Shown here: positions 1,665 to 33,529 of the stretch, one piece after another
Numbering within the stretch: the stretch's first letter is position 1
Layout of the letters: each line of letters starts with the position of its first letter
Origin: Sphacelaria rigidula
Lineage: Eukaryota
Assembly (NCBI GenBank): GCA_964200075.2
Contig: CAXNAA020000032.1
Coordinates: 1 to 33,529 of the forward strand
Direction of reading: 5' to 3'
DNA length: 33,529 nt
The notes under the pieces: generated by a model
The model's database searches: none
What the model saw: only the letters and a program-made list of their open reading frames with translations
What the model was told of the DNA's origin: nothing
Position numbers and translations under genes: made by a program

Positions 1665-1784
1665 TTACATATTCTGGCACTGTACCCGCTGATCACCGTG
1701 CCCGCCTGGCCCACGTTCATCGTCCGACCCGTCGACGTTCATCTCGTGCTGGTGAGTCTGACCGAACGTGCTCAGGTCCACGCG
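1665..1784 (-). CDS. DNAJA: DnaJ exon 9, terminal, with CaaX box
   Basis: [39 protein letters not shown] then TAA. Confidence 0.9.
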   Translation of the reverse strand, partial: RVDLSTFGQTHQHEMNVDGSDDERGPGGHGDQRVQCQNM

Positions 1785-4700
1785 CTGAGGCAAAGAGAGG
1801 ACACACACACAATATGAACGTGACGAATACGGAAACACGACAGCGATCTCATCATATATGCAAGACGAGGAAATAGTTGAAAGTCATGAAAATATTCCAG
1901 CATAACAAATACGGGGCCACCATAATGGAGTCCTCACCTCCAGCATGGGCTCCTCCTCCTCCCCATCAAATTCCGTCACCTCCGGAGGCGGGAGTGATCT
2001 CTTCAACACTTCCACCGCTTCCGGTGAAAGCTCGCTCGGGAACGTCACCTTTTTTATTTGTAGCACGGGGGGGGGGGGGGGGAGGGGGAAAACACTGAAA
2101 GGAACATTTGGACAAAGGGGCACAACGCATTCTCAGGGGGCTTGCAAGCCATGATCCACCACAAATCGCCGCCGAACTAATACGCGTATCATGTGTACTT
2201 CTTCACACACCACCGAATATCACACGAGAAGAGCTTGGATGTATGACTACACGTAGTCACTCAACTCCTGGTTGCGGAACCATTACGCGAGCGGTGTCAC
2301 GGGAACGCGCAACAGCTAAAAAAAACAAGGTGAAAACTCGATATGCTCCACACGACGCAAGTGCTGACGCATACACCAACCTTGAAGATGATGAAAAGAC
2401 GGCCCTTGACGAAGGGGTTCCCCACGGTCGGCATGCCTTCAGAGTCCAGCATGAACACGTCATCGTGCTTCGTCACTTGTCCCGGGTTGCTTTTGACTCG
2501 CAGAGTTCGCTTGTCCATATGCGTGATGGAGAAGTCAAAGCCGCACAGAGACTCCGACAGCGTGAGACTTTTCTCAATCACCAGATCGGCGCCCTTGCGT
2601 CGGAACGTCGGGTGCTCCTACGACCCCAGAAGACGAAAAACAAAACGAAACACACGTCCGAGTAGTCAACAGATGAATCCAACACGTCCCTGGTATCGCG
2701 GGTCATGTCGACACGATGTACATCTCCAGTCTCCTCTCGGTCCTTTCCGACAAAACTAGTTATGTGGTTTGGCACCCAAAACGTTCAACCATCAGCGTAC
2801 GCTATGGGTTATTGGTGACTCCCACTATTTCACGATGAACAAACAGAAACAGTGCAGGAAGAACAGCGCGCAACGCCGACAGAAGGGGGGAGCATGGTCA
2901 CGTGCAAGAGTCGAACCGGTTGCCGCACACCTCACCGAGAAACGCGTATACTGAGTCTGGACGTGTACGTATGTATACATATATCCGTCACGTACCTTCT
3001 CCTCTACAACGAAAATGATATCTCCAGGAACAACCCCCGGCGCCTCATCGGCCTCCCCGTGGAACACGATCTTTTGGCCGTTGCGCATGCCCTTGGTGAT
3101 GTGCACTTCCAACACCTTGCGCTCTTTCACCACCTGTTCATTTCCGATTTCCAGCGTCGGTCAAGGAGGAGAGGAGCTCAGACCGACGCCACCTCGAGTG
3201 CTACTTCGCCATTCGTTACATGAAAACTTGAAACATCTACCAAAGTGCCCGCGATGAGATCATCTGCTGGACCTGTCTGTGCGAGGCAACACGGACGCAG
3301 AAACTCTACAGGGACTCCACCTCTGCTTTCCCCCCCCCCCCATTCCATCAGACTGGTTAAAATCCTGTTCCATGACACCATTTTCGCAGCTGATTTCAAC
3401 CACCTCAAAACACAGCCCTGTTAACACAGCTGATTTCAACCACCTACAGGAAACACATCTGAATGCAGTCGGACTGGTACATGACACGTGCATTATGTCG
3501 TTGCGATCACCCCTCAGTTTCATGCTCACATCATTACGGGTTGCATGCATGGTTTTATTTCTTTTTGGACAGACTGACGTTGAAAAAATGAATCGCGGAA
3601 ATTCAAACTCCGTCCAAGGGTCACCCACCTTTTTACCCAGGCAGGACTTGCACTTGTCGCGCTCGTTGATCACCTTCCCCTCCCCACGGCAACTTGAGCA
3701 AGTGCTCTGCAGCTGTTGGACCATGCCGGGTCCTATCTGTCGGAACTGTACCTGCACCACACCCGAACCGAACGGCCGCAAAGACACCGAAGAGAGACAG
3801 ACGGCGTCAATACTCGCACACCCCAGCGAGCCATTCAACGGTTGAGGCCAATCCACCGGTACACGAGATTACCGATCAAATGCGTGACATCATTTACACC
3901 GAGTCCTACGGAGGCTAAATTCGGGCATTACCAGGACTGATCAACCCCCCCCCCCCACACCTCATCCTCTATCCTCATCAGTCAGAATAAATAGGACAAG
4001 TTGGACGTCGACCATTCATGGTTCATACACGAGCGATAAATGTTCTTCCTTTCTTTGGCTTCGGGGTATAGAAGATACACAAGAGGTTCGAACGGGGGAT
4101 GCGGATTCTTCCGGGGCTTCGGTAGTTGTGCCGCTGCAGGCGATATCGTAACGAAATGACCGACCTGAACTCCGCGTCCCTGGCACTTGTCGCATGCCTT
4201 TTCCGCTCCCGGTTTCCCGCCGGCACCATCGCACACAGTACACACCTGTCGGAATCGTACATGCGACAGCGGACACATCGGTTTTAACGGGTGTAAAAAA
4301 TATAATGAGAACCCGACAAAAAAGGGCCGCGGCGAGATACCGCAAAAGGCATGTCCCACAAGCGAAAGCGCATGCACGTTCTGGTCCCTCTCAAAACTCG
4401 ATGTGCGTTTGTATCGTCGTTTTCCATGAATCAAAATTTTTCGTGGTGACGCGTATTATTTTCAAATGTAGGGACAAAAAGGTGACGAGGGATATAGAGA
4501 ATATATTGTGTCAATCATACATTTCTGCTCGAGATTGTCAAACATGCTGAAATAGTTGAAACTTTCAGAAACCCATCGTGTTACATATCACAAGCCTCCG
4601 GTTCGAACAGTGAAAACGATTACTGCGGGACGTTCACATCAGTCACACGTTGATATCTCGTTCAGGCGGCCCCACCTTGTTCCGGGTTACGGCCAGGCGG

Positions 4701-7700
4701 CACGTCTTGCCGTTGTACAAGTCTTCCAAAGCCACCTTGAGCTTGTGTCTGTCATCTTCACCCTTGCGAGGTCCCTGGGGAGCAAAAGAGAGAGAGAGAG
4801 AGAGAGAGACGAACGCGAAGCAAAATAACAGATTGGTTTTACTGAGAAAAAAACGAAACACAAGGGTAACCAATGCCTGTACACAAACTGAATTGGTTTA
4901 TCGTCCACAGAAAACACGCACAACACGCCCGACGGCCAAAGTTCATGAGAGCATGGCGCGCGCGATGCGTCGAGTTTATACCGGGTTCTCGCGGCGCTAC
5001 CGCCACACGACTGCCACGAAGCAATCTCACCGAGCCTCTGGGCGATCGGCACGAGAATCCGCAGGCAGAGTAAGCGTTGGGTTAGGTTCCCTCCTTCCGT
5101 CAAGGAAAAATTGATGCAACATACGAAGCCTTCATGGAAGGGACCACTGTTTTCTCTACACCACCCTCTGATGATGGTCTCCATTTCCTCGCGGGTCGTG
5201 GCCTACCGCGTACGCACGACGTACTTCTAGCACAGATAACACTCCATCATCGCACTCTGCGAAAAGGAGAACGACGACTCTAATGGCTGTCCAAAAATGA
5301 CGATATTCCGGAGTTTGCTCACGACCTGCACCGATCACATTCCGACAATCTGCTCGACACCGACACACCCTGGACAAAAATTAATTTTGTAGAAAAATGT
5401 ACCGCATGCAGTATGAAATCAAATGTCTATAGCAATAGGCGGAATACCGGGTCTCGGGGCAAAAACGACTGAAATTGGATCAATTTTGGGTATCTTTTAC
5501 GCTGCGACAAACAAAATCGCCGACAACTGTACCTACCCTGAAGTGGCCGTCAAGAGCAAAACATTGTGTATCATGAGATAGTCGTCGCCCACCCTAGGAC
5601 GTATGCACTGAAGCTAAGGTGGAGCCACAAAACACAAAATGTTTTTTCGTTCGGGGTGCGGACATCTCGCAACGAATGATCCATTGTGCTCCCCTGCGTT
5701 GTGTTTTGAAGCTTGTGAAGACAACCACACCAGAACCCCTCCTCCAGAAGAAGCCTTCATCAAGTGTGCGCTATTCGCAAAAGGGGACAAAAAGCAGAAC
5801 CGAGTGCGGAGCTCACGCGACGATTTTTGTTCGGGCCTACGGGCGATTAACTCATCGCCAAGACACAAGATACCTTGCGCACTTTTTCACTGCAGAGAGT
5901 TGTGAGTTAACATGTCGCGGGTGGGTGCTCCCACCACGTTCGTTCACACCCTGAACAATATTTCACTTTGTCAAAAAATGTACTGGGTACAGTGTCGACT
6001 ATCGCGGTACCAGGTTCCATGGTGTAGATAGCACATTTTTTTGGCGACGGAGTCTCGATATCCAGGATGATTCATCATCCGTAACCGTCTACCATCAAGT
6101 CACCGGATATATTCACATGACTCAACTGAGCCAATCCAACAAACACGAGGTAACTTCTGGGGAAAATGGTTGTAATCTAAACCCACGGTCAAGCCACACA
6201 CGTGAAAAACGACAGTAATGCACGGGAGGAACGCCTCGGATATACTGCCGACGGCCCAACATGACTACAGAAATCCGGGCAACTCACCCCCCGTTGCCTT
6301 CCCCCGCCGCCGAAAAACATGCTGAAGATATCTTCCGGTGTCTGGCCCGATCCTCCGCCCTCTCCCTCGACGCCGTCTTTTCCGTACTTGTCGTACAGTT
6401 TGCGCTTTTCTGGGTCACTCAAGACTTCGTACGCCATGGTGATCTCTTTGAACACCTCCGGGTCGCCGCCCTTATCCGGGTGATTCTGTCGCACCACGTT
6501 AGAGAAGGAGGCATTGGGGGTATGAGGAATGGGACACAGTTCGTCTTTTCATAGAAAATACAAGTTGCTGCACTTGCTCCGGTAGTCATGCACCGTGGCG
6601 AATTTGAAAGGAAAAAATGACCGACACACCAGTAGGGGTTGAATGGACATATGACTGATGCGTTCCATCCGCATTCACGGATTTTGGTACAATGAGGGCG
6701 TGTCTTGGAAAAGGAAGATGGTTTACATCACGACCCATCAGGTCGGAATATTTATTTTACTGCACTTTCTTGATCGACAAATGACACTCCAAGACCGTCT
6801 GTGGCAGGAGCCGTTCGAAATTCCTGTTTCAAACTGCCTTCTTGGCCTTTCTTCGTCATTATACGCCTGAATGGGGGGCTAAGCGGATATTGACGCCTGG
6901 GAATGACCCATTCTAGTCATTGAGACCGTTCCAGGGCGACTCTGCATTTCCCGCTGGCCGCATTTTTATTTTCGGCCTAGCACGTATTTTCAGTGAGAGC
7001 AATCAAAATACTGACGAAGACTTTGATCATCTGAGCGTCTTTCACAGAAGATTCGTGATTGGCCTGATTCGGTCATAAACTGCAGTGCAGCCAGCGGGGA
7101 ATGCAGAGTTGCCCGAGAACAGTCTCAAAGAGTAGAGCGAGTCACTCCAAGGCGTCAACTTTCTATCGGCGTAAATCGACGAAGAAGGGCAAAAAAAAAA
7201 AACAGTTTTCGGAAGGAGTTTAGGACGGCCTTGATTAAACTTGGCCTAATATTCGGAAATTCACTGGCCGCACTTCTGTTATCCGACAAATCAGGCCGAA
7301 CACGGATCTTCAGTAATAGCCGAGAATAAAAATGCGGCCAGCGGGGAATGCAAAGTCGCCTTGGAACGGTCAACGAGTAGAGCAGGTCGTTCGAAGGCGT
7401 CAACATCCGCCTAGCCCTTCCATCAAGGGCAAAGGAAGGCAGTCTCGAACAGAAGTCTTGAGCGACTCTTATTAGAGACGATAGAAGTCGCAACCTCAGC
7501 GTCACAAGTTTTCAGCGAGCGAATGCACAGCGGTGGAGACATGTCGCGATCATTTTTGCTGTAATGCAGAAAAAACAAAACCGTGACGATAGATGACACC
7601 TGTCACGTGCAGTACTAACTTATGTATTTACTGCATTTGAAATATTCGCCACACTGTACGCAGTACTCTTTTCGAAAATGCCATCCGTGTTAGCGGTGAG

Positions 7701-10700
7701 AAAAAAAAAAGCTGTCGGATGATTTCATGCCTCAAGAATCACGTACCATGACATGTGTGCCGTGGTTTGGATCATGACGGGCAACATACTCAAAAGAGGC
7801 AGATTTTCTGTCTTGTGGTGTTGGTCCTCTGCGGTGTGTTATGTGATAACGCGTACGTGAAACGTGAAGGTCTCGTGGGGAATCATCGATGATCGAATCG
7901 ATACATATATTTAGGTTGTGTACGATTTTTTATTCGAATATCGCCGTGATAAATCAAAACTTTCCAAGGGTATGATTCGTCCGGAGATTACTTGATTTTA
8001 GGGTGATTGATTCGTACCGACGAATCTATCCTCACGCCTCGTCCTCAGCGTCACGGCCCAGGTACGTAAAATGGCGAAAAGGGTGCGTGCAGTCCTGTTT
8101 GACCAGCTGTAGACTTTTTTTTCCCTTCATCAATCAGGTCTAAGAAATCGTGCATTTAGTGTTTTGAACCAGCGATGATTCTTGTGAACGATCAAAATTT
8201 GCATTACCGTCTTTTGATCTTGACCAAACAAACAGACTCGTGTGTTGGAGGGTCCCCAGGAAGTTTGCGGGCCATTGTGTTTCTTCCATCATTTCGACCA
8301 GTCGTACCGTGGTCGGCTTACGTATCCTCTCGGTGCAATGACCCGATAATCCCGCAAGACGGTGCGCAGTCACCGTCCAACTACGAGCACCCGCATCAAA
8401 ATATCGCTCGCCAGAAAAAAACGGCCATGTATTGTTCCTGCGAGTGGCCAGCACTCGGAACTTCATGCATGCGGGGGGTTACGTGCGGGCCGAGGCACAA
8501 TTTCACATCTACACGTTGGCGCCAGTGTTCGCCCGACTGATCACTTTTACGCGGAGTCAAAATTCGCTAGGTTTACTCGTAAAGCTCGAAATGGTAACAG
8601 TTATAACTGACCGTTACATTATAATGGTGATCATGGTGATGGTTATATGAAAATTTTGGATAATGGTTTCAAACTATTATTTACCCTTACCGGCTGCGTA
8701 TGCTACGTACAGCCCTTGAAATTTGCCCAAATGTCGCGTTTTTTTTTCGCTCTGGTGAAGCCAAATCACGTAAGAACGTGCTTCCCGCACGGGGCCCTCC
8801 GGCAGGGATCCCTTTGCCGAGGGTGGCTTTTTGGCTCGCGTCTGCGCCAGTCGATGACTAAACCATCATGTACCATTCAACTGGTTAATGGTCAGACAAA
8901 CCTTTTCCGAGCTCTGCTTGTTTGAATTTCTGCACACTTGATAGTTAAGTTGTAAAAGAGTTGCGGGTATCTCGCTTATTTTATGAAAAGAAAAAAAACA
9001 GAAACATCCTACAGCAATCAAGCGTCGAAAATGGAGGCGTTCCTTGACTTGCAACATCCGTGAGGACAACATGATTATCACACCAGGGGGCTGGTGAGAC
9101 GGACGTGGAAGCGGTTGGAATACGGTCCCTGCTGTCTCTGCAACAGCACAGTCGCCGAGGGATAAACCTTATTTGCAATGAACTGGCGGACAAGCCACGT
9201 CACGTGATTTTACTCTTGCCCAAAGTAAAGACGATGCCTCTTACTCTCCATCAGGCATGGCGTAAGGTCGTTTCGGCATCATTCATCACCTCCACGGGGA
9301 GATCATGGGGTAGTTACGTCCGGCATTCATTTCCTCGCACGCATTGGGAGCAGAACATGAACACGAAACACCTCCCGTGCTACGCTGTGATGTTCAGCGT
9401 TGAACCACGAGCCTTCACATGGCTGCACCTCAGGCACGTATGTACCCCGCGGATTGTGTAAGCTGACTTCATATTTTACGGAAAAAAGTAGTCGGAACTA
9501 CGGAATTACACGGCAAAATATTTCTCGAGTTAGGTAAGCTGCTGTGTGAGCAATTTGACATGTACTCGGGAGCTGATCACGGCAGCAATTCAAGTTCATC
9601 CACTACCTCTGGAGCGGAACCTAGTGCACGGGCTCTCAGCTAGAGACGCGCCCAGCGTTTTAAAAGATTTTGTCCCGTGATGTACGCTGCTAGGGTACTC
9701 GGTAGCACAAACATCATCAAAGGAACATCAAGCTTTGCCATCTATTTGTCCGCACCATGGCTGCTCGCTTTTTGTTGCGTGCAGTCGGAATGACTACGAA
9801 CACATCGTCTGCTCCGTCCCCGCATGCCTGTGACACAGCACACTGTACTCTCACGACGGCGACGATCGCCACGGTCATTTACGGCAGCAGTATAGGACTC
9901 GAGTACACCATGCGTGGCCGAATCATTTGCATCGAATAAAAGAACTGGCTACGACAGGGTGGGAAAATGTGAAAAAACAAAACTACTGGCATCGACGAGA
10001 TGGACAGGTCACGCTCATGTCAGGGGCGCTCCAGGCTTTTCCTCGATATCACAAAATAACGACAATTCGCGAACACACACAAATACAAATTTCCCGCAGT
10101 ACAGTTTTCAGGTTGGTCCAGGCAACCCTCGACAGCGGCTGAAAACTGCCGCATTTACCACTTGGCATGAGTTTACATCAAGTTCTCAACAGTCTAGGGT
10201 GCCTCTCAAGACTGGCGTGGGAACGAACGATCTTTGGGGCTCTAGAACATACCGACATCGCGAGATGTGACTTTAGAAAACATCACAGATTTCACGCCCT
10301 GTTGAAAACATTTACGTGGAGTGAACGGCAGCAAAGCTCCCGCAGACTCAGCAACAAGGCCTTCTTGCAGTCCAGGCGATTCGATAGCATAAACCCTTTG
10401 ACTGCGTGCAACCTGTGGAGCTAAAGTGAGAAGAGCTTGAAAAACAACCAAGTTGATCTCGAGGGGTGCGAATGAAGTGGTGGGTACTGGTACTCTTCGG
10501 TAAGTTAGACTGATGTAACTATGACGGAGGTCATTACCCAAAACATCTAGCTCCATGTATGGACACGATTGAGCACAGCGCCAAACCACGGAAATCTTTC
10601 CTGCCCCCGAATCTTCGAGTATCGGGGAACCGAAAGCCCGAGCTAGACCGGGCACAGAGCCCCTGTAACACGCACTACAATAGCATCCTCCGCATCAAAG

Positions 10701-11252
10701 CTTCCCGCATCGAAAATAATCACGGGCAGACACGGTTTTCTTTGAGCTGTGCGAGTGATTTGGCAGACCGTGACGTCGCTGCCCATCCTTCTGAAGATGT
10801 CTCACGTACCTGCCACACACCCCACTACGTTCGCCTTGCCCATCTGGGATGGCAGAAAAACATACATGTGAATAAACAGGCGGTTAAACACAGATCGACG
10901 GTTAAATAAAATGGACACCACATACCCCACTGGTTTGCTCCTCCGTACCCAGCTCCCATCGATCACCATAGTCAGCTTTAGAAACCGTACGATATCATCC
11001 ACTGAGCTTCCGATTCCTTCGCTCCAATAGGAATACAAATATCTCGTACGTTCACACCTTTAGGGCAAGCTTCCTGTAGGCTTTTTTGATGTCGGCCTCG
11101 GAAGCGTCCTTCTCGATGCCTAGGATCTCGTACAGCTTCGTCGTGTCCACGTCCGCGGGGGGGGCGCCTCGACCCCGCCCGCCGCCCATGCCTTCATCTG
11201 GGCCGCCGTGCATGCCCGCAAATTGCTCGAAAGGCGAGCCTCCAAAAAACAT
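1665..11252 (-). CDS. DNAJA: Class A (type I) DnaJ/Hsp40 co-chaperone, DNAJA/Ydj1-like, 9 exons, 433 aa, C-terminal CaaX (CQNM)
   Basis: Exons 11252-11058, 6485-6288, 4774-4676, 4245-4165, 3751-3629, 3133-2996, 2617-2381, 2048-1938 and 1784-1665 join in frame through GT-AG introns. The product has a J domain (LYEILG...[19 protein letters not shown]), a G/F region with DIF motif, four zinc-finger repeats ([32 protein letters not shown]) and C-terminal domains (PGDIIF, EGMP), and ends RVQCQNM-stop. Confidence 0.96.
1938..2048 (-). CDS. DNAJA: DnaJ exon 8
   Basis: [22 protein letters not shown]...EPMLE; aag acceptor, donor GAG|GTGAGG. Confidence 0.88.
2381..2617 (-). CDS. DNAJA: DnaJ exon 7
   Basis: [16 protein letters not shown]...[20 protein letters not shown]; acceptor tag. 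Confidence 0.93.
2996..3133 (-). CDS. DNAJA: DnaJ exon 6
   Basis: [16 protein letters not shown]...[11 protein letters not shown]; donor AAG|GTACGT. Confidence 0.93.
3387..3445. repeat. 19-bp perfect direct repeat, 40-bp period
   Basis: CAGCTGATTTCAACCACCT at 3387 and 3427. Confidence 0.8.
3629..3751 (-). CDS. DNAJA: DnaJ exon 5 (zinc-finger repeats 3-4)
   Basis: [25 protein letters not shown]...CKSCLGKK. Confidence 0.93.
4165..4245 (-). CDS. DNAJA: DnaJ exon 4 (zinc-finger repeats 1-2)
   Basis: [27 protein letters not shown]; cag/GT boundaries. Confidence 0.93.
4676..4774 (-). CDS. DNAJA: DnaJ exon 3 (GPRKGED...AVTRNK)
   Basis: LEDLYNGK motif; (CT)n pyrimidine tract before acceptor; donor AAG|GTGGGG. 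Confidence 0.93.
4787..4809. repeat. (AG)n microsatellite serving as the polypyrimidine tract of DnaJ exon 3
   Basis: Direct reading; lies just upstream of the minus-strand acceptor at 4775-4777. Confidence 0.8.
6288..6485 (-). CDS. DNAJA: DnaJ exon 2 (NHPDKGGD...GGRQRG)
   Basis: HPD motif; acceptor cag, donor GGG|GTGAGT. Confidence 0.95.
6805..7470. repeat. Foldback/MITE-like inverted repeat in DnaJ intron 1 (one left arm, two right arms)
   Basis: 6925-6976 versus the reverse complement of 7319-7370 matches at 48/52; the left arm 6805-6976 also pairs with 7086-7233. Confidence 0.75.
11058..11252 (-). CDS. DNAJA: DnaJ exon 1 (MFFGGSPF...YRKLALK)
   Basis: ATG at 11252; J-domain helices I-II; donor AAG|GTGTGA. 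Confidence 0.93.
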
Positions 11253-12246
11253 GTTGATGCCCTCTTTTCACCACCTATTTATTGTTGTGGCTTGTTGGCT
11301 CGTGACTGAGTTCGCTGGGTTTTGGACGTCGGGTACGTTCGCTGCGGCTGTTGTAATGAGGTCTAGAACAAAAACGTGGTGGCCACGTTTTTATTTCGAG
11401 ACGGAAGAGGCTAACGAATGACCAACACCACTTGATTGCTGTCGTTGTTCGAAAGCGCTCTAATGCACCACCAGGTATATGATGGACGCACGAATACTGA
11501 GAGCGCGAGAAGTCAATTACCTGTCTGCCGCTCGTACTATGTCCCTCGTCTATGTTGGTGGCACCGCAGAGTGCTCGGAAGCTAACGATGCACGCCTCTT
11601 GTGCAAGGCCGTGAGGAATCCGTCATGTGATTACGGAAGATCCGGTCATCGATCGGATTTATGATCAAATCCGGCTTGTCCTAGAAAAAAACAAAAAAAA
11701 CACCTTGAGCCACCCCCATCAACGACAGAACCTGTAGTGGAAGATCGACAGACGACGCCGGGATTGTCACAGGCACAAGTGAAGTCACCTGACTGCGGTG
11801 TAAGGAACGAAATCCACAGGTGGGTGAACGTGATTAGCGCTCTCGTAATGTATATATTGTTTTTGAACAACGGTATTGTGTATAAACCAACAGCTTCTTC
11901 GTGCATCCCTCTCTCGGTTTCCATGTTGACGTTCAGCAAGACCATATCTCACACTAAAATCAAGTCGTTTCCATGCTTTCTATCCGATGCACGGCTCCTT
12001 TTGCCTGAGTTGACCATCCATGCGATCCGGCAAACGAGAAAGTCTTTGAACATCCAGAGGGTGAGAGCTACATGGGAAGGGAGCGCACGAGACAGATCAC
12101 ACCATTAACAAGACAACGACAGCAGGATCTACCGTAATCCTGATGGAGTCTAACTCTTTGCCCCACACTCTTGAACCTGAAACCGCCCCCGACAACCAAC
12201 AACTGGAAATAATAAACAGGCAGAACGCATATCAGAAAACACCATC
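11253..12246. promoter_or_regulatory. Divergent intergenic region: 5' UTRs and probable shared promoter of DnaJ and AGO
   Basis: 994 bp between the two outward-facing ATGs; individual cis elements were not resolved. Confidence 0.65.
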
Positions 12247-12479
12247 ATGTCGGAGCGTGGACGTGGGCGAGGCGGCAGGGGGGGACGAGATGGCGGGGGT
12301 AGGGGGCGCGGCGATTACAGGGGCGGAGGTCGGGGAGGGGGGCGAGGAGGTGATTTCCGTGGAGGCGGGAGAGGTGGTGGCAGGGGTGACTTCAGAGGCG
12401 GAGGCAGGGGTGGCGGCGGTGGCCGATTTGGTGGTGCGCAGGAAGATGCTCGCTTTCGAAACGTGCCTCGCGTCCACGA
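12247..12479 (+). CDS. AGO: AGO exon 1, RGG-rich N-terminal extension
   Basis: ATG in catcATG context; RGG/GD(F/Y)RGGGRG repeats; donor GA|GTGAGT (phase 2) matches the phase of exon 2. Confidence 0.85.
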
Positions 12480-15400
12480 GTGAGTTTCCGGTGTTGGATT
12501 TCAACCAACAGAGAAGTCGAGATCCCGAGGCATTTCTATGATTTGTGCGGCTGTTGGCAACGGACATGATGGATTGGGGCAGGGGTTGTTGGGAGGAGGA
12601 TGGTTGGTTTTCACAGTGTCTCGTTCACTTCCTTTGTAATCGATTTCCTTTTTCCCGTTATGGGTGAGCTGGTTCGCTATGCCATCCTCAAGAGATGAAT
12701 CATGTGCTGTTCTTCCTTCGCTTCAAGTTTGATCGCCATTTTCCTCGGCTGCCCTCGGAAAGAAATACGTGCACGGTGCACACAGCAGTGCAGCTATATC
12801 CCTCATCCACCCGCCCACTCCGTCGCTCGCAGGTACCATGCTTGGCGTTTTATGTTCGACTGGAAAAAGGGTTCAGCAGTGAACGCCATGACATACTGCC
12901 CACGTATCTAGCTTTTTGCAGACAACAGTCAGTAAGATACTGGCTGTTTTTTCAAATTTGCTACATACTCTTATCCATCACGTTGGCATATGATTTCCGA
13001 ACATATTTTTATGTACCTCCACCTTCTTTGATAATTAAGACAACCCCGAGTTCCTCTCCACCGACCATCCACTTGTTCCGATTCACCGACCGCCACTTTT
13101 TTCCCTGGAGGCAGCGTGTTGAAAGTGCTCCCACTGACTGTGCCCTGTGAAGTAAAGTGAAGTCATGTGTCTTGACCGAATGAAATGTTGCTCTCAAGCA
13201 TGTCCTATGTTCGGCGGCCGCCGACTGCCTGTGGTTGCCCTTAGCTGTCGAAAATAGATATTGTTTCCCGGGAGAGTCGATTTTTTTCCCTGAGAAGTAC
13301 ACGGTGCTACCTGCACTGACTGTGACGATATTCACCGTGCTCTCCTGCGTTGACCCCCGTCTACCGTGACACCTTGTGTCACTTGAGATCAATGTCGAAG
13401 CATGACCGATGAAGCGAACACACGGGAGCTGCTTCATTTCGGAAAAGTATTTTGCCCGTTGAAGAATGCCCGCGTCGAATCTGATTTTTCGTCAGGAGTC
13501 TGCCGCCGCTTTTTTCGGTAGTTCTTGTTGAGACAGGTGAAGATCTACTTGCCCAGATGCGCAGACGACCGTTTAACCTTGTTATGGAGGCATTTTTATT
13601 CTACCATCAGTGGAAACCTTTGCCGAGGGAAAGATACGTTTATATTTATATGCGAACCATGCGTGAAATATCACCTTCCAGGGCCTTGATTCGTTCGAGG
13701 CGTTTCACCATGTCCCAATCTCCAGCACCTGTACCAGGTACGTGGACACACGAGCGCACGGTCCAGTGGAGTCGGCTCGATTCCGGTGACTGAAGTTCAT
13801 GGGCTGAGTCACATACAACAGTTGTTTCAGCTCAGATAATCATATTCGAATCTTAACAGGGCTCACACATAGGCCTTTACTTTTCATGTGTGCATATAAT
13901 ATCGCACAAAACGGCGTTTCGCGCATAACCTTCCGCGTTTTTCCAAAAACATTTGTTTTTGGATATGTCAGCATAGCAAAACAAGCCAAGAGATCTGCGC
14001 GATACGCACTACGTGGCGCATACAGTACTTGACGGGATTATACACCCCTTGCCTAACAGCTAGTAGCTGCCCACGGGTGCTCCATCAGGCGTGGCTCGCC
14101 GAGTCATGGCGCTTGTACTCGTGATTTTTTTTCTCAACTTCATTGCAGGTCTGATATCGATTATTGTGCTGTATGCGAACTACGTGATATTCATGTGGAA
14201 CTAATGAAAAAATAAATGTGTCAAATTTTACGTGAGACGTGGGCTTTTGCCTTTTATGTAATTTTTTTGCATGTCGGAAGGTATGTTCCTTGGAGGGTGC
14301 CGCTAGCATCCGCCCCATAAAGGACGCGGAAAAAGCACCCTCATATTTCACCGATATGCGCATATCGACGCATAGTTTTCACCCTCGAGCATGAAGAAAA
14401 TTAATGATACGTACGAAAAAAATGCGCATAAACAGCGAAAGTCCAATCACACCAAGCAACTCGCCCTCGGCCTGGACCACATGGATCCAGTCAAACTGGA
14501 GTTTGGATCCTGGGTGGAACCTCAGGATCGATCGCCAATGCCATGCCTTTGATATTCGAGTTTGACACTTTCGAAAACCCATCAACCCCCCCCCCCCTCC
14601 ACCCAATAAATGATGAAATACACATTGAGGTATGTGGTTACATGGGCCAACTCGGACTTCGCCGGGCAGCATGATTCCCGAGGGGAGAAGGGAAAAGCAG
14701 TCCCCGCGGATGGCTTCTGCCTTGAATTCGGAGGGTGACGTCCACCGTTTCGGTCTGCAGCGTACGGACAGAATAACTTTCAGTTGTCAGGGAAGTACTT
14801 TTCAATTCTTTAACCCGGGAATTAGATGCACGCATCCCTTCCCCACAAAAAAAACATGATTACATTGATGTTATTTTCCAGTTTGGTCTTGAATCCGACT
14901 GGCATCGTTCCCGAACTAGCAAGAACCACCTTGAGAACGTACCCTACCCTTCTGGTTCATGAGTTTTCCCGCCTCCCATTCCCTCTAAAGGGGACTACAT
15001 CTCAACGAGCAGGGGGTATTGTTCATCCGTGGGCAACCCCATGAGCATCCCCACGAGCATCATGCCAGTTCAAGGGGGACACACCCTCTGTGTCATGTAA
15101 CCATCGCGTTTGAAGGAAATGAAGTTTGAACCATGAACTTCCGAAATCTTGGTCCTCGCCGACCCCCCCCCACACACGGATAGTGCGTCAACTGCCGTCG
15201 CCGAGCAACTGCTGTCCACCTATGGATATCTGCATCCCACACACCCAACCCGCTGTTAGGAAATGGCGGAAAATCGCTCTCTCGGGTGCTGATGTAGTGT
15301 CGGACAAGTAACACGGCACTTCACTAGCGCGATCTGCGCCATGAAAAGCACATTGCAAAATCGAGAGCGACCGTCCAAGCGCGTCACCTCCCAGGTAATC

Positions 15401-18400
15401 GCCAAGTTTTGAGGTGGAGTGGCCGACCGAAACGATCCTGCTAGAGAGCCAGCATGTTCGGCACCAGAGCAAAACTGTCAGGACTTGGGGGTCTCCCTGT
15501 TGTCAATCAGGAATTCATTGTAACACGGAAGTACACTGTCAGCACGATACAGCGATCCATTAGCCACGGATTGGGCTCTGATATTGGCCTCAAATCCGTT
15601 CTATATGACGGTGGAATATAAAGGCGGGTGTGATACGGTTTGCAGTCGGTGTGATGGATAACGGGTCTTCGCGCGGATACCCCGATTGCAATGTGCAAGA
15701 GGTAGGAAACGAACTTGAACGTGTAGAGCCAGTGCTGTGAACACGAACTTTGTGGGGATATTTCTGAGCGCGGTATCATATGGGCGGATGTTCAGATTGC
15801 AGTGTGCAAGAGGCAGGAAACAAGCTGGAGCCTTGAGAGCCAGCGGGATGAATATAGGCAAGTGTCCGGATATTCCAGAGCCCGAAGTGGAAGAGATGGG
15901 GAACAAGGATGAGCGTGAATGACGGGGCTCACCTCGGAACTTATGCAGTAGGGAGTTTCCCGCCGTTCACGTAATGTATGGGACTTCGACCCAACGTAAC
16001 TGGTTGCCCGCGGGGGTAGGCTATCGGGGTTAATCATAACCGCCTGTTCAGCAGATGATCGTGCTCGCCGATAGAGAGTTGAAAGGGATGAGTGGTTCAC
16101 ACGTGAACAGTTTCGCTGCCACTGGTGATGGAAGTTGAAAGTTGCTGAGGCCTAACTGGCAAGCTTGGAATATCTATCATCTCCGACGGCAATTTTATCG
16201 GAGTCGCATGTTGTCACGAGAAATGGATGAAGCAAATATTATTTCCATGAGGGTGCGTGTGAGGGTGACAATTATGGAACACAACAGTATCAGCTAATCC
16301 AGGCGATACAAAAGTTTACGAGTTGGATGTTAAAATTTCGGAACGCTCACCAACACGCCCATCATCTCTCGGGATGCCGAAGAAAAAAGAACAATTATTT
16401 GAAATTCTAGCAAAACCTGGAAAGTCTCATATCTCCTCCAAAATATATACATGAAAGATGACGGCATATCATGAAATGTAAAGCCGGTCGCCCCGGTGGC
16501 TCAGTTGATAACCTCGTAACCTTCTGACGGTTGAGTTGTGGTATTCGATTCCCGGAGCGATCTGGGATTTTTCCTTACACCATGCCCAATGGTGGAGAGC
16601 GACTATGTCGTGGGTACACAAAATTCGACTTGACGGTCGACGAGGAAACGGGACGGCTGATCCCCTCTCGCGATATAGAATAAAAAGGCAAGCACCGCAG
16701 AAGGAAGGGGGATTCTAAAAACAAAGAAAAACGAAAAAACTCCTTTGTTCACCTTCCTCCTGTGTGACCCCGGCTGATGCGCCTACATATCCCGACAGGG
16801 GTAGACTGGCGCCCAGAATAAATGGGACGACAACACACACACATACATACTCGCATGCTGGAGATCCTAGGTTGAATATCGGCCAAAATTATGGCAAATT
16901 GGACCCTGTCCGTCACTTTTTGTGTAACATCCCTTTCCTTCCCCTCCCTCTGTATCCGAAGCGATGGAAGAGACTCAAGTCATGGAGGTCACGAGTTTGA
17001 ATCCCCACGTATCTTTTCTCGCAGAATCTGATTCCGTAGTTGAGGTAATATATTATGCAATACCTGGTGTATTTTTCTCATTTTTCTTCCAGCGGCAAAG
17101 TTTGCATGACCCGCAGGGTCTGCATTCCACAGCGATATACTTCACTCTGATTAATTCGGGAAACTTGAGAAGTTATTCCGTGATATGCGCTTATACTTGT
17201 TTTTTTACGGCGGGCCCAGCTCGTGGCTGTTCAAAAATCGGAAGGATGAAAAAGCTGAACCGCCAGTCTTACTCTCATTCTCAGTCTGTTGCCTCATTTT
17301 TGTTGTCTCTATGAAGACGTAGCCAAGGGTTGACCCTTTGACCGTGAGGGTAGGCCGTTTGAATCAACATATTACGAGCAGAGGAGCTCCGAGCTGGGCC
17401 AGCCTAGAGGCGGATTTGAGGTTTGTACGCACGTGCTCTTTTATACACTTGGAGTTGGGCCCTGAAATTTTGTTTGAACAGTGCGTAGGGCATAAAAAAA
17501 AACTTCGGTACCAAAATATATATTTTTATTCTTCATGAGTTGAGGGGCATTTTACTGATACCTGAACACTGATTATTGCCCTTAACCCCTTGACGGCGAG
17601 AGTAGGTCATCTTTTTAATCGGCATCAATTTCACTAAAAAGAAGAATGCATGATCCAGATAGAATGAGCTCGCGGTGTAAGGGTCAACTCATGATGAAGA
17701 AAACACTCTTGGTACCCCAGTAATTTTTTCATGCCCTACGAGCTGGGCCGCCGAAGATGCTCACTTTCCTTCAGTCCGTTCTTACTTACGATGTACCGCG
17801 AGTTGTGCCTACTATGGCACATCATTGTTATCGGCGAATCAGCGAGCGTCTTCAAATTCATGTAGCACTGCGATTCGACAAGGTCCCATAAAACAAAATA
17901 CCAAACGGTGGTGAAGTGCGAAGCGTAGAGAGGTGAGGGTACCATATGCGGCGGAATCAACAAAAAACGGCCAAAATTTGATTTGCGGTTACAGTCGGTT
18001 GTGCCGCGTGTTGCTGCACAAGTTGCGATCGTACAACAACACATGTCGCACTAGGCGCGCAATATCCAAAATGGCACGCAAACGAGGCCCTCAGCGCGCC
18101 AAGGTGTCTGGTGGTAGTGTGCCAACCAACGAGAAGTTCGTGAAGGCCTCTGAGCCGAGAGTAAAAGATGAAAAGTCAAGGGGGATGTTCCGGCTGAGGT
18201 TGGTCAAGTTAAAGGGGATGGTCCATCTCCACATGATAACTGCTGGTCGACGGAATGACGTATTTTCTTCGCTCAATTTCGGACCGTTTTCAATGAAATT
18301 TTGACGCGATGTACAGTATGTATGTGCGAATACCCCCTTCGTTTCTCCCCTGTTTTTTTTCTCCGTGAGTTTTTGTCGGCGGAACATTTCACAACAGTTT

Positions 18401-21400
18401 TTCGGAACAAAATTGCCAATAACTCACGGAGAGACGAAAAATATAGGGGATGTAAGGTTGGATCCTCGCACACACGTCCTGTACATCGTGTCAAAATTTC
18501 ATGAAAAAAACTTGGAATTGCGCTACATATTTGCGTTTTAATTATTCGTTGCTGGTCCATCTCCACATAGTAACTGCTGGTCGATGGAATGACATATTTT
18601 CTTCGCTCAATTTTTTTATCGTTCTCGATTAACTTTTGACACGATGTACAGGACGTATGTGCGAACAGCTGACCTCCCACCCCCTGTTTTTGTTTTTCGT
18701 GAGTTATTGGCGAAGTAACATTTCAGAACAGATTTTTCGAGACGCAATTGCCAATAACTCACGAAGAAAAGAAGAAAAAATACAGCGGATGGAAGGTCAG
18801 CTGTTCGCACATACGTCCTGTACTCCGTGTCAGAATTTCATAGAAAACGATCAAAAATTGAGCGAAGAAAGTGCGTTTCAACATTCCTGGTGGCTTCTTG
18901 GGCCGACCACCAGCCTGTATGAACTGTCCATACCAAATTTCAGGGTCCAACTCTTAATGTATTGAAGTGCATGGGCCCATCAAAAACCGAGTCGGTAGGA
19001 ATTCGGAACAGTATTTCGCAGGTCACTCACCGTCCCACGTTTGGTTCTCGTGTAGTAAAATTTGGTATGGGCGCTCTTCCAGGCATATTCAACAAAAAAT
19101 TATGGGTCAGGTTGATTTTTTTCATTTTTTTCACTGGTTTGGGGCGTTCTACTGTGGCGAAGACCATTTTTTCACGAAGACGCCCTAACCTCTGTTAAAA
19201 AAAATGAATGCCTATTTTTTATTCATTTATTCGGCGCTCTTTCGTGGTTCTCCACACCAAAATTCGCCGCCATATGCTAAATGCATCGATCGAGAGTTCC
19301 ATAGAGATTCTCTACTATTGGCAAGGTATTGGCGCTATCTCCCTTAGGTATATGAATTACTAGACATGAGGTTTAACCAACCAGAAAATATGAGCCCAAA
19401 CTCTTGAGCAGATGAAAACCTTACCCTTGATTGGACGATTAATACGATATGCGCGGGTCACGGCCTAACACGTCTGCGTCGATGAGAAATTGCCTTTGAA
19501 GCTTGAATCCGTTTTTAGGCTGGCCCAGCTTGTATCGCGTCTAGTTTTTGAGAGTTGCGCTACTTGAAAAATATCATGTACGAACTGGCCACAAGAATTA
19601 AAATGTATACGTGAACCCGAATATTTCGCTTCACGAGTTGATGGCAATGAGCAGTTTTTGAGGTGTCGGTGAAATTCCGTAAACCCCTACAGTGGACGAC
19701 GAAATCGGGTCATGTGCTGATATATGCATACATTTCACTTCGAAAATGTATACACGACCGAGGTGGACTACGGGTCGCGTGTTAGGGGTTGAATTGTGGA
19801 AAAAAGAGGCTTTGGGTCGATATATATATGTGTTTCTTTTAATATGCCTTATTCATTGTCCATACCTAATGTCCGGGTCCGCTGCGCCCTGGTGGTGAAA
19901 TGGTTCGACCGTGCCGTTAGGGTCAAGAGAACGGGGGTTCGATCCTCGGTCACTTGGGTTTTTTATTCGTAATGTATGATTTCCACCGTAGAAAGCGTGA
20001 GGACGTAGTGAACAAAAGTAGTCGACTGGGTTTGTGTGACGTAAGTTGACGCGGTGCGACAATGCTGATCCAATCCGCGACACGAAAACGACAGGCGCGT
20101 ACCGGGGAAGAGATGGGTTGATCCCTTGAGACCACGAACTCATTCCGAGGAAGGGGAAGGGTTCAAAGTTTGAGGGGGAAAAAAGAAAAAAAATCCTACA
20201 AATATTGGCCGCCGACTGGGCCTGCAAACTAACAAGCTCGCTTTTACTTCTTGTTCTTGCAGGCTCTAAACTCACCTCCCGTCCTCGGGACGAACCCGTG
20301 GTCTCGAGAAATGAACACCGTCTCTCCGCGGCAACCGCCGTAACACAAACTCGGCCAACTGCTTCTTGTTTACCCAAATCCTGGCGCTTTCTACGCATCC
20401 GGCGAGTCTCGAACTCATGTTCTCTTCACCCTCTCTGTATCAGTTGAACCATTGAACTGCTGGAGCACTGGTTGTTGTTCTACCTCGCGAACCTGCACAA
20501 TCGAACCGGCATTCGAAATTGGGATGTTCGCGGTGTGGAACGTGTGAAACTATTCCCTCGTGTAGGTGTGAGAATCAGTGCAACAATGTTCGTTTTCCCC
20601 CGTCATATTTCGAACCTCCCTATATTTTTGGGCGAGCCCATAATATGAGGAAGCAAACCGTGTCTTTACCCGCGATGTACAAGAGATTTTGGTACCGCTA
20701 ATTTCATCACGATCACCGCGCCGATCGACGTCGTATTTTCCAGGGCTACAAACGTTGCACGTGCAACAACGTTACATGTTACGTTAACATCACGGTTCGA
20801 CCAACACGTAACGTCAAGTAACGTGACGTAACCGTTAATGTTCTCATGACACTTCAGCGTAACGATAATCTTTTCAACATGCCAAATGAAGGGTAACGTG
20901 AAACCCTGAAATCGTCCAAAAGTTCAAAACACGTGATAAGTAACGTTTCATGTAACGTGTGACGTCTTGTTGACCTCAACGCGTTGCATGAAACGTCATA
21001 AACATGTTCCATGACGCAGGGCACCCTCCAAGATCGCAATCAACATTTGAAATCCTGGCAGAGAATGCCTACATCAAACACGAGTGAGTTTGAATGAGTG
21101 TGGTATACTGTAGGACATACTTTTTCAGCAAGTTTCCGCTACGCGCCCCAGCACACTACAACTTATCGTTGCAGTAGAGCATCATAACAAATATCATATT
21201 GATCACCTTCATATCAAAAGAAGAGATCAGGTGTAACGCAATGGGTCAATATATTCACCTCAGGACATGATGTGTGGGGTGTTTCCATCGCATATGCCCT
21301 TACTTCGCCCATAACGGTCAAGGTTTGATGAATAAACGCACCTGTCCTCAATTATACTGCCCCCTCTGCGTGATATTTACTCCCTTCGTTATCGCGTTTG

Positions 21401-33370: not shown

Positions 33371-33529
33371 GTAAGCAGTATGGCGTCACTTGATTTTTTT
33401 ATCCACGCCGCCTCAATCTTTCTTTCCCTATTCTTGCTCCGTCTCGAAAGGGATGCGTGGTCAATGGTCAAATGGGTAAGGCAAGCAACAAATGCGGACC
33501 CCCCCCCCCCCCTCTCCTCCCGTGCTCCG

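Follow-up and report, generated by a model that had tools for sequence, protein, structure and literature searches.

A gene encoding a class A Hsp40 (DnaJ, minus strand) and a gene encoding Argonaute (AGO, plus strand) diverge head-to-head on a 33.5-kb contig of Sphacelaria rigidula, which was analysed over its full 33,529 nucleotides (hereafter the window). The features of the locus are:

1665..6485, minus strand: DnaJ exons 2-9, stop codon included (RNA joints and best fit to Ectocarpus HSP40; Pfam)
6485-6288, 4774-4676, 4245-4165, 3751-3629, minus strand: DnaJ exons 2-5
3133-2996, 2617-2381, 2048-1938, 1784-1665, minus strand: DnaJ exons 6-9
6486..11057, minus strand: DnaJ intron 1 (4572 nt; joint 6485->11058, CT..AC)
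11058..11252, minus strand: coding part of DnaJ exon 1 (sequence; Pfam DnaJ, 3.2e-09; RNA joint 6485->11058)
11253..11548, minus strand: minimum DnaJ 5' UTR (at least 296 nt; spliced RNA contigs)
11549..12249, no strand: inter-transcript interval of 701 bp, bounded on each side by the last well-covered RNA contig
12247..12479, plus strand: Argonaute exon 1 (sequence; joint 12479->21427, GT..AG, in runs X6, X7 and X8)
12480..21426, plus strand: Argonaute intron 1 (8947 nt; RNA joint; GT..AG ends)
21427..33529, plus strand: Argonaute exons 2 onward (Pfam; RNA joints; tblastn; splice ends)
21427-21505, 21783-21935, 22382-22639, 23099-23338 ... 33220-33390, plus strand: the Argonaute exons within that stretch

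Splicing was read from contigs of the RNA-like runs X6, X7 and X8, all from one study, with X1 as the DNA run. The record gives X6-X8 no RNA label and their RNA nature was assigned from intron-skipping contigs alone; we take them to be cDNA-derived because these contigs skip canonical introns that X1 spans. The joints 6485->11058 (CT..AC, skipping 4572) and 12479->21427 (GT..AG, skipping 8947), and likewise 21504->21782, 21934->22381 and 22638->23098, were each present in one contig in each of X6, X7 and X8 and in none of X1. These joints identify the RGG-rich exon at 12247-12479 as exon 1 of AGO. They also confirm first introns of several kb in both genes (4572 and 8947 bp), as an earlier note on this DNA had claimed. 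All three Sphacelaria RNA runs show expression of both genes, with contig depths (~1725-2411 for DnaJ, ~540-738 for AGO) that cannot rank expression.

The DnaJ gene consists of nine exons and its spliced model encodes 433 aa. Exon 1 encodes an N-terminal Gly-rich stretch and the first half of the J domain, and exons 2-9 encode the remaining J domain with the HPD motif (residue 67 of the model), a G/F region (residues 71-130 are 28% G+F, a linker composition judged without a formal threshold), the zinc-finger repeats, the C-terminal domains and a CQNM terminus. Pfam matched the J domain (PF00226, DnaJ) in exon 1 (ORF 11055-11267) and exon 2 (6192-6548), the zinc-finger domain (PF00684) on two exons (3985-4455 and 3263-3868) and DnaJ_C (PF01556) in the ORFs 2828-3160 (4.5e-10) and 2300-2617 (1.7e-11). 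The model holds four zinc-finger C..C.G.. repeats (residues 166, 182, 209 and 225), the fourth of which reads CKSCLGKK with its last G replaced by K. Pfam and the spliced model thus bear out the earlier reading of a class A protein with four zinc-finger repeats and a CaaX ending. The CQNM ending was found in 17 of the 24 homologues inspected, including all full-length brown-algal ones with the C-terminus present; six others end in CNNM, CAQG, CGQA or CANQ and one is truncated. A methionine at the X position of a CaaX box favours farnesyltransferase, and prenylation of the DnaJ cysteine is predicted from the box.

In tblastn searches residues 1-63 of Ectocarpus HSP40 (P0144, CBJ30599.1) matched DnaJ exon 1, and residues 1-430 were collinear with the nine exon blocks. 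The alignment of the spliced model to this protein contained 380 identities in 435 columns, and by sequence comparison the DnaJ of the window is its orthologue (87% identical). Against solved structures, Ectocarpus HSP40 matched human DNAJA2 best (7zhs, 7.4e-117), followed by yeast Ydj1/MAS5 (4.1e-63), and with DNAJA3 the J domain alone matched (~1e-14). Judged through this orthologue, the closest characterised relatives of the S. rigidula protein are the cytosolic DNAJA/Ydj1 proteins and not mitochondrial or bacterial DnaJ. Upstream of the start codon, the 5' contig ends lie at 11548 (X6), 11524 (X8) and 11464 (X7), with a 13-nt inverted repeat at 11367-11395 within the 5' UTR. Intron 1 carries repeats at ~6.5-9.2 kb, where the DNA depth is 1088-3860 versus ~65 elsewhere.

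Exon 1 of the Argonaute gene contains the ATG and encodes a disordered N-terminus rich in RGG/Gly (36 G and 19 R among 77 codons). Intron 1 contains dispersed high-copy repeats (~15.9-20.5 kb), and a single-copy stretch of it (14903-16507) is weakly transcribed; no tandem repeats and no Pfam or Rfam matches were found in it. Between ~21.8 and 33.4 kb of the plus strand the domains follow in the Pfam order ArgoN, L1, PAZ, L2, Mid, Piwi, with which the precomputed domains of the deposited AGO protein (P0017) agree. The contig ends before the gene does, within PIWI (Fucus AGO aligned over residues 92-888/975 in tblastn, and P0017 was aligned to the exons in the same way). The DEDH catalytic tetrad of PIWI is described as conserved in brown-algal AGOs (PMC12867755). 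The AGO of the window is 85% identical to that of Fucus over 94% of the query and is a single-copy AGO-clade gene. Ectocarpus AGO (Ec-01_009010; Bukhanets et al. 2026, PMC12867755) is likewise single-copy and of the AGO clade, with an N/L1/PAZ/L2/MID/PIWI architecture and a disordered Gly/Arg-rich N-terminus; unlike it, the window copy is cut by the contig end.

It is scarcely credible that the head-to-head arrangement is a gene-model artefact, with the exon at 12247-12479 belonging to another gene and AGO starting near 21.4 kb: Pfam finds nothing in this exon and the deposited protein is flagged partial and begins at 12280 rather than at the ATG, but it does so in the same frame, one contig in each of the three RNA runs links 12479 to 21427 and runs on into the ArgoN exons, the frame of exons 1-5 is open and from its 12th residue coincides over 200 residues with the start of the deposited protein, the AGOs of Fucus and Ascophyllum are also rich in Gly and Arg at the N-terminus (42-44 G and 27 R among residues 1-130), and a disordered N-terminal region of ~125 residues is described for brown-algal AGOs (PMC12867755). 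Assignment of exon 1 to another gene was rejected on the splice joints.

The spacer between the two genes

The start codons occupy 11252-11250 on the minus strand and 12247-12249 on the plus strand, leaving 994 bp between them (11253-12246), which agrees with the earlier observation that the two start codons point away from each other at this distance. The transcribed regions are at most 701 bp apart, as judged from RNA contig ends, which need not mark transcription start sites (TSSs), and the interval 11549..12249 is presumed to be a shared bidirectional promoter region. Within it, a single contig of low depth (depth 4, run X6 only) covers 11982-12217, and its ORFs had no Pfam match. Between DnaJ and Argonaute, or nested on opposite strands, no other genes were found (0 credible Pfam matches among 107 ORFs, 0 Rfam matches). 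The composition of 11253-12246 (GC 0.485, CpG o/e 1.03) equals that of the window overall.

The earlier note had also suggested that the arrangement could tie RNA silencing to the stress response. A search for the heat-shock element GAAnnTTCnnGAA, with at most one mismatch allowed, gave no match in the DnaJ-Argonaute spacer, which speaks against this suggestion; over the whole window there were 10 matches versus 12.3 expected by chance.

With head-to-head orientation, less than 1 kb between the starts and a spacer without a gene, the two genes form a divergent pair. The arrangement itself is not beyond chance, because in brown algae no layout is commoner than two head-to-head genes separated by a short spacer. 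A partner of this identity, an Hsp40, is rare a priori, though this feature was chosen post hoc.

The probable counterpart in Ectocarpus

Ectocarpus AGO1 is known as CBJ30598.1 (PMC4839659), as Esi0203_0032 (PMC4513859), as D7FQK3 (PMC3874173) and as Ec-01_009010; a match to Esi0203 in PMC6337836 was discarded, being an actin peptide. The accession numbers of Ectocarpus HSP40 (CBJ30599.1 / D7FQK4) come directly after those of AGO1. On chr_01 the annotated TSSs of Ec-01_009010 (7626069, minus strand) and Ec-01_009030 (7626209, plus strand) are 140 bp apart (PMC7784034, supplementary table). From the consecutive accessions, the position and the expression level we infer that Ec-01_009030 is the HSP40 gene and the head-to-head partner of AGO. 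Among the predicted miRNA targets of Ectocarpus is the transcript of Ec-01_009030.

The adjacency of AGO and Hsp40 thus appears to be conserved in Ectocarpus and has probably been kept since the split of Sphacelariales and Ectocarpales. Absence of the pair from related genomes, which the earlier note had named as part of a refutation, is not what this relative shows: accessions and annotated TSSs point to an equivalent divergent pair. Choristocarpus tenellus is uninformative, since AGO and DnaJ are on separate contigs, both short (14,279 and 14,515 bp), and the 5' part is missing from its AGO model.

We compared expression of AGO and Ec-01_009030 as TPM over 14 condition means from three studies. 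Both genes were expressed in every condition (AGO 11.7-357 TPM, partner 51.5-286 TPM), with a partner/AGO ratio ranging from 0.23 to 6.0. The log2 TPM values of the two genes hardly followed each other (Pearson r = 0.20, p = 0.49, n = 14), and in the six-condition study r was 0.37 with a Spearman rho of -0.03. When the two low-input points of unilocular sporangia were left out r rose to 0.75 (p = 0.005, n = 12), which is due to a between-study offset. In microdissected unilocular sporangia AGO reached its peak (332-357 TPM) and the partner was in its lower range (81-84 TPM), and in bulk partheno-sporophytes the values were 61-67 TPM for AGO and 211-286 TPM for the partner, so that in the sporangia AGO is up ~5.5-fold and the partner down ~3-fold. 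Similarly, from wild-type gametophyte to wild-type sporophyte AGO rose from 12 to 46 TPM (~3.8-fold) and the partner did not (62-75 to 52 TPM). For eight histone marks, the presence/absence string was the same for AGO and partner in both generations.

Co-regulation and divergent gene pairs in brown algae

In Ectocarpus divergent pairs account for 61.7% of the genes that flank TSS-adjacent intergenic regions; the spacers of such pairs have a median of 409 bp, versus 2293 bp for tandem pairs (PMC7784034). [quoted passage not shown] Similar tendencies were reported across brown algae (bioRxiv 10.1101/2024.02.19.579948). The AGO-Hsp40 pair resembles these pairs (2021, PMC7784034) in being head-to-head, in having a spacer far below 1 kb, in the activity of both genes and in the equal histone-mark calls at the Ectocarpus counterpart. 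Structurally nothing sets it apart from them; the difference is that the products AGO and Hsp40 are functionally connected in other eukaryotes.

We consider it likely that the locus is a real, probably conserved but ordinary brown-algal divergent pair of AGO and a cytosolic class A, CaaX-bearing Hsp40, in which the two genes are independently driven. Two core promoters in one nucleosome-depleted, activation-marked region would keep both genes accessible, and each gene would then be driven by its own regulatory inputs, Hsp40 as an abundant housekeeping co-chaperone and AGO as a gene modulated during development, with its maximum in unilocular sporangia and meiospores. That the two genes share open chromatin here is likewise suggested by analogy with the Ectocarpus pairs. 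Because a break within so short a common promoter would harm two genes that the alga needs, the adjacency would persist without any need for co-regulated products. Conservation through promoter sharing alone is an argument rather than a result. The earlier suggestion that a bidirectional promoter could couple the expression of the two genes is not supported by the genome-wide correlation (r ~0.05) or by the way in which AGO and its partner move apart across the Ectocarpus samples.

A weaker, non-adaptive form of coupling, in which shared open chromatin sets the basal or on-off state of both genes while their levels are independent and the relation between the products is coincidental, has in our judgement a small but real chance of being the better description. 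It is in line with the expression of both genes in all Ectocarpus conditions seen and in the three Sphacelaria RNA runs, with the identical histone-mark calls and with the general sharing of chromatin by pairs under 600 bp (PMC7784034), but it is hard to separate from the ordinary, independently driven pair, of which it is a shade.

The idea of a selected, co-regulated RISC-loading module goes further and holds that the promoter couples the one and only AGO to its loading co-chaperone, that selection keeps the pair and that there is perhaps a link to stress. Its background, as given by the earlier note, is correct: the five chaperones with which RISC assembly can be reconstituted include Dnaja2 and Droj2 (PMC5733571), and in Arabidopsis membranes AGO1 is associated with farnesylated J2/J3, farnesylation not being required for AGO1 loading (both PMC6204899). 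Abstracts on S. pombe Mas5 and C. elegans DNJ-12 also point to a link with RISC/AGO, so that a class A Hsp40 is involved in RISC assembly or associated with AGO in several lineages. Droj2, DNAJA2, J2/J3, Mas5 and DNJ-12 share their architecture with the DnaJ of the window: a J domain carrying HPD, zinc-finger repeats, C-terminal domains and a CaaX box. The partner of AGO in the window thus belongs to the kind of Hsp40 employed for AGO loading in flies and humans and bound to AGO1 in Arabidopsis. Adjacency to an AGO gene is not mentioned in the passages and abstracts examined on class A Hsp40s in RISC assembly, a literature search for Argonaute-DnaJ linkage via a bidirectional promoter found nothing related, and in PMC12867755, on Ectocarpus AGO, the terms DnaJ, HSP, chaperone and mass spectrometry have 0 occurrences.

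Further points that fit such a module are the apparent conservation of the pair across the deep split between Sphacelaria and Ectocarpus with TSSs only 140 bp apart in the latter, the CQNM box kept in 17 of 24 homologues, the correlation of 0.75 without the low-input samples and the common histone-mark string. The reported salt induction of Ectocarpus AGO1 (PMC3874173) would fit a stress-linked promoter. There is also a precedent in the head-to-head M1PDH3/M1Pase1 pair of the mannitol cycle (Denoeud et al., bioRxiv 10.1101/2024.02.19.579948), which is kept across brown algae, has products that act in one pathway and has an intergenic region of ~500 bp in Ectocarpales. That pair encodes two dedicated enzymes of one cycle, whereas the AGO pair includes a general co-chaperone, and the conservation of the latter is indicated for two orders only, and indirectly.

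Nevertheless, we regard a module of this kind as unlikely. Genes in divergent pairs form the majority and show no co-expression across the genome (PMC7784034), the peak of AGO in unilocular sporangia coincides with the lower range of the partner, AGO rises from gametophyte to sporophyte where the partner does not, and the spacer lacks a heat-shock element. Among solved structures the Hsp40 is moreover most similar to the general-purpose co-chaperones DNAJA2 and Ydj1, and AGO would therefore be one client among many. Among 80 AGO-bearing metagenome loci none had a DnaJ match, which is weak counter-evidence, and too little to argue against conservation outside brown algae, since 71 of them are at most 6 kb long and transcript-like and only nine exceed 6 kb. 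The strongest version, an ancient and selectively retained unit, older than the Sphacelariales-Ectocarpales split, in which one promoter region ensures that AGO is never made without a farnesylated Hsp40 that loads it or anchors it to membranes, and in which the predicted miRNA site on the Hsp40 transcript would close a feedback loop between RISC and its co-chaperone, we likewise hold to be unlikely.

A dedicated, co-regulated RISC-loading module is thus not supported, and the ordinary divergent pair with independently driven genes is the reading that we retain. By analogy with class A Hsp40s elsewhere, the Hsp40 may well assist AGO loading, and the two proteins may be in contact; any such help would be a property of the protein, independent of gene order.

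The analysis validated two gene models on a draft contig, including an AGO start that is absent from the deposited protein, and revealed an AGO-Hsp40 pair that is apparently conserved in Ectocarpus. A functional linkage would be an uncommon eukaryotic example of a silencing effector connected with its chaperone through the genome itself, and it would offer a concrete candidate AGO cofactor to the Ectocarpus field, where CRISPR already works. For brown algae in general, head-to-head adjacency says little about co-regulation.

The divergent gene pair

The DnaJ (minus strand) and Argonaute (AGO, plus strand) genes start at ATGs at 11252 and 12247, respectively, facing away from each other 994 bp apart, just as the earlier note had described. 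It had also claimed multi-kb first introns for both genes. Comparison of the contigs of three RNA-like runs (X6, X7 and X8, one study) and a DNA run (X1) over 3200-23199 yielded the joints listed here together with the Pfam domains.

6485 to 11058, minus strand: DnaJ joint, CT..AC, 4572 nt skipped, one contig in each of X6-X8 and none in X1
Exon 1 and an exon at about 6.3-6.5 kb, minus strand: J domain
Two exons, minus strand: DnaJ zinc-finger domain
Two exons, minus strand: DnaJ_C
12479 to 21427, plus strand: AGO joint, GT..AG, 8947 nt skipped, one contig in each of X6-X8 and none in X1
21504 to 21782, 21934 to 22381 and 22638 to 23098, plus strand: AGO joints in the same contigs as the preceding one, in each of X6-X8
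About 21.8-33.4 kb, plus strand: ArgoN, L1, PAZ, L2, Mid and Piwi, in this order

The two long joints occurred in all three RNA runs and in RNA only, and therefore both first introns are real and of multi-kb size. The RGG-rich exon 12247-12479 is part of the AGO gene despite its distance of ~9 kb. No further gene was found in the interval of the pair or nested opposite to either gene: none of 107 ORFs had a credible Pfam match, and no Rfam family matched. Tandem repeats were not seen in the introns of the two genes.

The DnaJ model, built from the RNA joints so as to agree best with the Ectocarpus orthologue, comprises 9 exons and 433 aa, with HPD at residue 67, four C..C.G.. repeats and a CQNM C-terminus (the last exon ends in VQCQNM-stop). 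The alignment showed the Ectocarpus "Heat shock protein 40" (P0144; CBJ30599.1, D7FQK4) to be collinear with the exons over its full length, with 380 identities in 435 aligned columns. Among solved structures, human DNAJA2 was the best match to P0144 (7.4e-117 over almost the full length), with yeast Ydj1/MAS5 next, and the protein is therefore of the cytosolic class A type. The four repeats and the DNAJA2 relationship confirm the class A assignment of the earlier note, and the last exon and the spliced model its CaaX end. Of the 24 homologues inspected, 17 end in CQNM, among them all brown-algal ones with the C-terminus present, a conservation that fits a putative farnesylation box.

Piece by piece, the deposited AGO protein of S. 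rigidula (P0017; "unnamed protein product, partial [Sphacelaria rigidula]"; 872 aa) is 100% identical to the window, and our model of AGO exons 1-5 is an open frame that agrees from its 12th residue with the start of P0017 (12280). The only in-frame ATG (12247) lies 11 codons before this start, and because an RNA contig reaches 12250, the deposited model may lack the true start. Within exon 1, a 36-nt unit present 1.9 times (12325-12393) encodes the GGRGG-DFR motif that recurs in the disordered N-terminus.

Spacer and first introns

Spliced DnaJ contigs reached upstream to 11548, 11524 and 11464 in the three RNA runs, the first implying a 5' UTR of at least 296 nt, and AGO contigs started at 12250 (X8), near 12317 (X7) and near 12338 (X6), the latter two by arithmetic from record positions. 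At most 701 bp thus separates the transcribed regions, a figure based on contig ends, which are unreliable guides to RNA termini; assembly may also be interrupted at the Gly-codon repeats in exon 1 of AGO. The heat-shock element GAAnnTTCnnGAA had no match with at most one mismatch in the spacer (11253-12246), and 10 such matches in the whole window against 12.3 expected. GC content and CpG ratio of the spacer equal those of the whole window. Inside the DnaJ 5' UTR there is an inverted repeat (11367-11395; 13 nt, 3-nt loop, 92% complementary) with two ACGT cores.

Unspliced RNA contigs of 1.2-1.5 kb were found in all three RNA runs at 14903-16507 in AGO intron 1, where RNA depth was 14-33 versus 0-4 over most other parts of the intron and DNA depth 73-90 versus a baseline of about 65. 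Neither strand gave a Pfam or Rfam match, and the contigs could come from a non-coding transcript nested in the intron. In Ectocarpus, Ec-01_009020 (0 TPM) is numbered between AGO and its divergent neighbour. Dispersed repeats occupy both first introns (15873-20541 in AGO, 6535-9202 in DnaJ), with summed DNA depths of up to about 673,000 and about 3,900, respectively (baseline about 65); the AGO repeats are abundant in the RNA runs and the DnaJ repeats are not (RNA depth 0-34). Tandem structure is absent from these repeats, and neither a transposase nor an RT domain was recognised in them. It is a minor curiosity that a gene of silencing should itself have transposon-rich introns.

The probable counterpart pair in Ectocarpus and its expression

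Ectocarpus AGO1 has been listed as CBJ30598.1 (PMC4839659), D7FQK3 (PMC3874173), Esi0203_0032 (PMC4513859, Table 2) and Ec-01_009010 (PMC12867755 supplements, PMC5381526). The orthologue of our DnaJ, CBJ30599.1 / D7FQK4, has the next accession after AGO1 in both series. Accession numbers of that submission presumably follow gene order. The annotated TSSs of Ec-01_009010 (chr_01:7,626,069, minus strand) and Ec-01_009030 (chr_01:7,626,209, plus strand; both Bourdareau et al. 2021, PMC7784034 supplementary table) lie 140 bp apart on opposite strands, and the two thus form a divergent pair; on the 3' side of AGO, Ec-01_009000 lies about 20 kb off (TPM 2-4; PMC7784034). Ec-01_009030 is probably the HSP40 gene, because it is the expressed gene abutting the AGO 5' end, because the AGO1 and HSP40 accessions are consecutive and because its bulk-tissue TPM is 2-4 times that of AGO. 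The pair, whose absence from related genomes would have counted against the earlier note, appears to be conserved in Ectocarpus. The Sphacelariales branch between the nodes of FDI origin and crown radiation. These are dated at about 236 Mya and about 190 Mya, respectively (Denoeud et al., 10.1101/2024.02.19.579948). The Choristocarpus AGO and DnaJ genes are on separate short contigs and thus uninformative on adjacency, and none of 80 AGO-bearing metagenome loci, only 9 of which exceed 6 kb, had a DnaJ match.

TPMs of AGO and Ec-01_009030 were gathered from three studies, excluding frameshift mutants (AGO mRNA depleted). In sporophyte and gametophyte, respectively, AGO was at 73.5 and 95.7 (second experiment 84.9 and 76.5) and Ec-01_009030 at 251 and 206 (219 and 179; PMC7784034). 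Bulk mature partheno-sporophytes had 61-67 for AGO and 211-286 for its partner, and microdissected unilocular sporangia 332-357 and 81-84 (Bukhanets 2026, PMC12867755). The six conditions of the third study gave, in order, 11.7, 12.4, 46.0, 43.5, 34.5 and 38.5 for AGO and 62.3, 74.8, 51.5, 146, 158 and 91.0 for Ec-01_009030. Over these 14 points the log2 Pearson r was 0.20 (p = 0.49) and the partner/AGO ratio ranged from 0.23 to 6.0; differences in protocol confound TPMs across studies, and the comparison therefore leans only tentatively against the coupled expression proposed in the earlier note. The six-condition study alone gave r = 0.37 (Spearman rho = -0.03). Without the two low-input points r was 0.75 (p = 0.005, n = 12), which reflects an offset between studies of a kind that would raise the correlation of many gene pairs. 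The low partner level in unilocular sporangia, the tissue of the AGO peak, points away from coupling, as does the 3.8-fold rise of AGO from WT gametophyte to WT sporophyte without a rise of Ec-01_009030. The reported induction of AGO1 under salt stress (Billoud et al., PMC3874173) counts toward coupling.

Ec-01_009030 is also listed as a potential miRNA target (previously published miRNAs column, entry Ec-15_000460; PMC12867755 Dataset S11) and grouped 'targeted_by_MIR' (Datasets S12, S13). It is not differentially expressed in ago mutants (TPM 220 vs 211-286 in bulk, 70-78 vs 81-84 in sporangia; PMC12867755).

Divergent pairs in brown algae

In Ectocarpus, 61.7% of genes flanking TSS-adjacent intergenic regions are in divergent pairs, with a median spacer of 409 bp versus 2293 bp for tandem pairs, and pairs closer than about 600 bp have one nucleosome-depleted region and histone-mark peaks in common (PMC7784034). 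Transcript abundances of partners were uncorrelated (Pearson 0.042 for all pairs, 0.054 for pairs <600 bp) and the authors concluded that partners are independently regulated (PMC7784034). The FDI clade shares strand alternation, and short divergent intervals occur in all brown algae (Denoeud et al., 10.1101/2024.02.19.579948). Since such pairs are the majority, a close head-to-head partner is the likelier state for any brown-algal gene; the next divergent pair in Ectocarpus, Ec-01_009040 (minus, chr_01:7,646,420) and Ec-01_009050 (plus, 7,646,546), whose annotated TSSs are separated by 126 bp, illustrates that the layout is routine. On these published data, head-to-head partnership in brown algae predicts shared chromatin, not shared expression, and the AGO-Hsp40 arrangement, like other such pairs, is not special in itself.

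The earlier note read the sequence carefully and correctly. The role it gave for class A Hsp40s in AGO loading (Droj2, DNAJA2) agrees with PMC5733571, where Dnaja2 and Droj2 are among five chaperones reconstituting human and fly RISC assembly. Likewise, the J2/J3-AGO1 association is found in PMC6204899, where farnesylated J2/J3 are associated with Arabidopsis AGO1 in membrane fractions and AGO1 is loaded without need for farnesylation. By analogy, it is plausible that this Hsp40 aids AGO; the gene order is no added evidence for it.

No printed description of the adjacency was found in the literature searched. The searched text of the 2026 Ectocarpus AGO paper (PMC12867755) contains no DnaJ, HSP, chaperone, promoter or "neighbo-", and in that of the Ectocarpus small-RNA paper of 2015 HSP90 appears, but HSP40 and DnaJ do not. 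The adjacency is already implicit in public annotation. Most economically, AGO and Hsp40 would be a standard brown-algal divergent pair with a common open promoter region, retained since breakage within a spacer this short would be harmful to two genes that are needed, and each would be under its own regulation.
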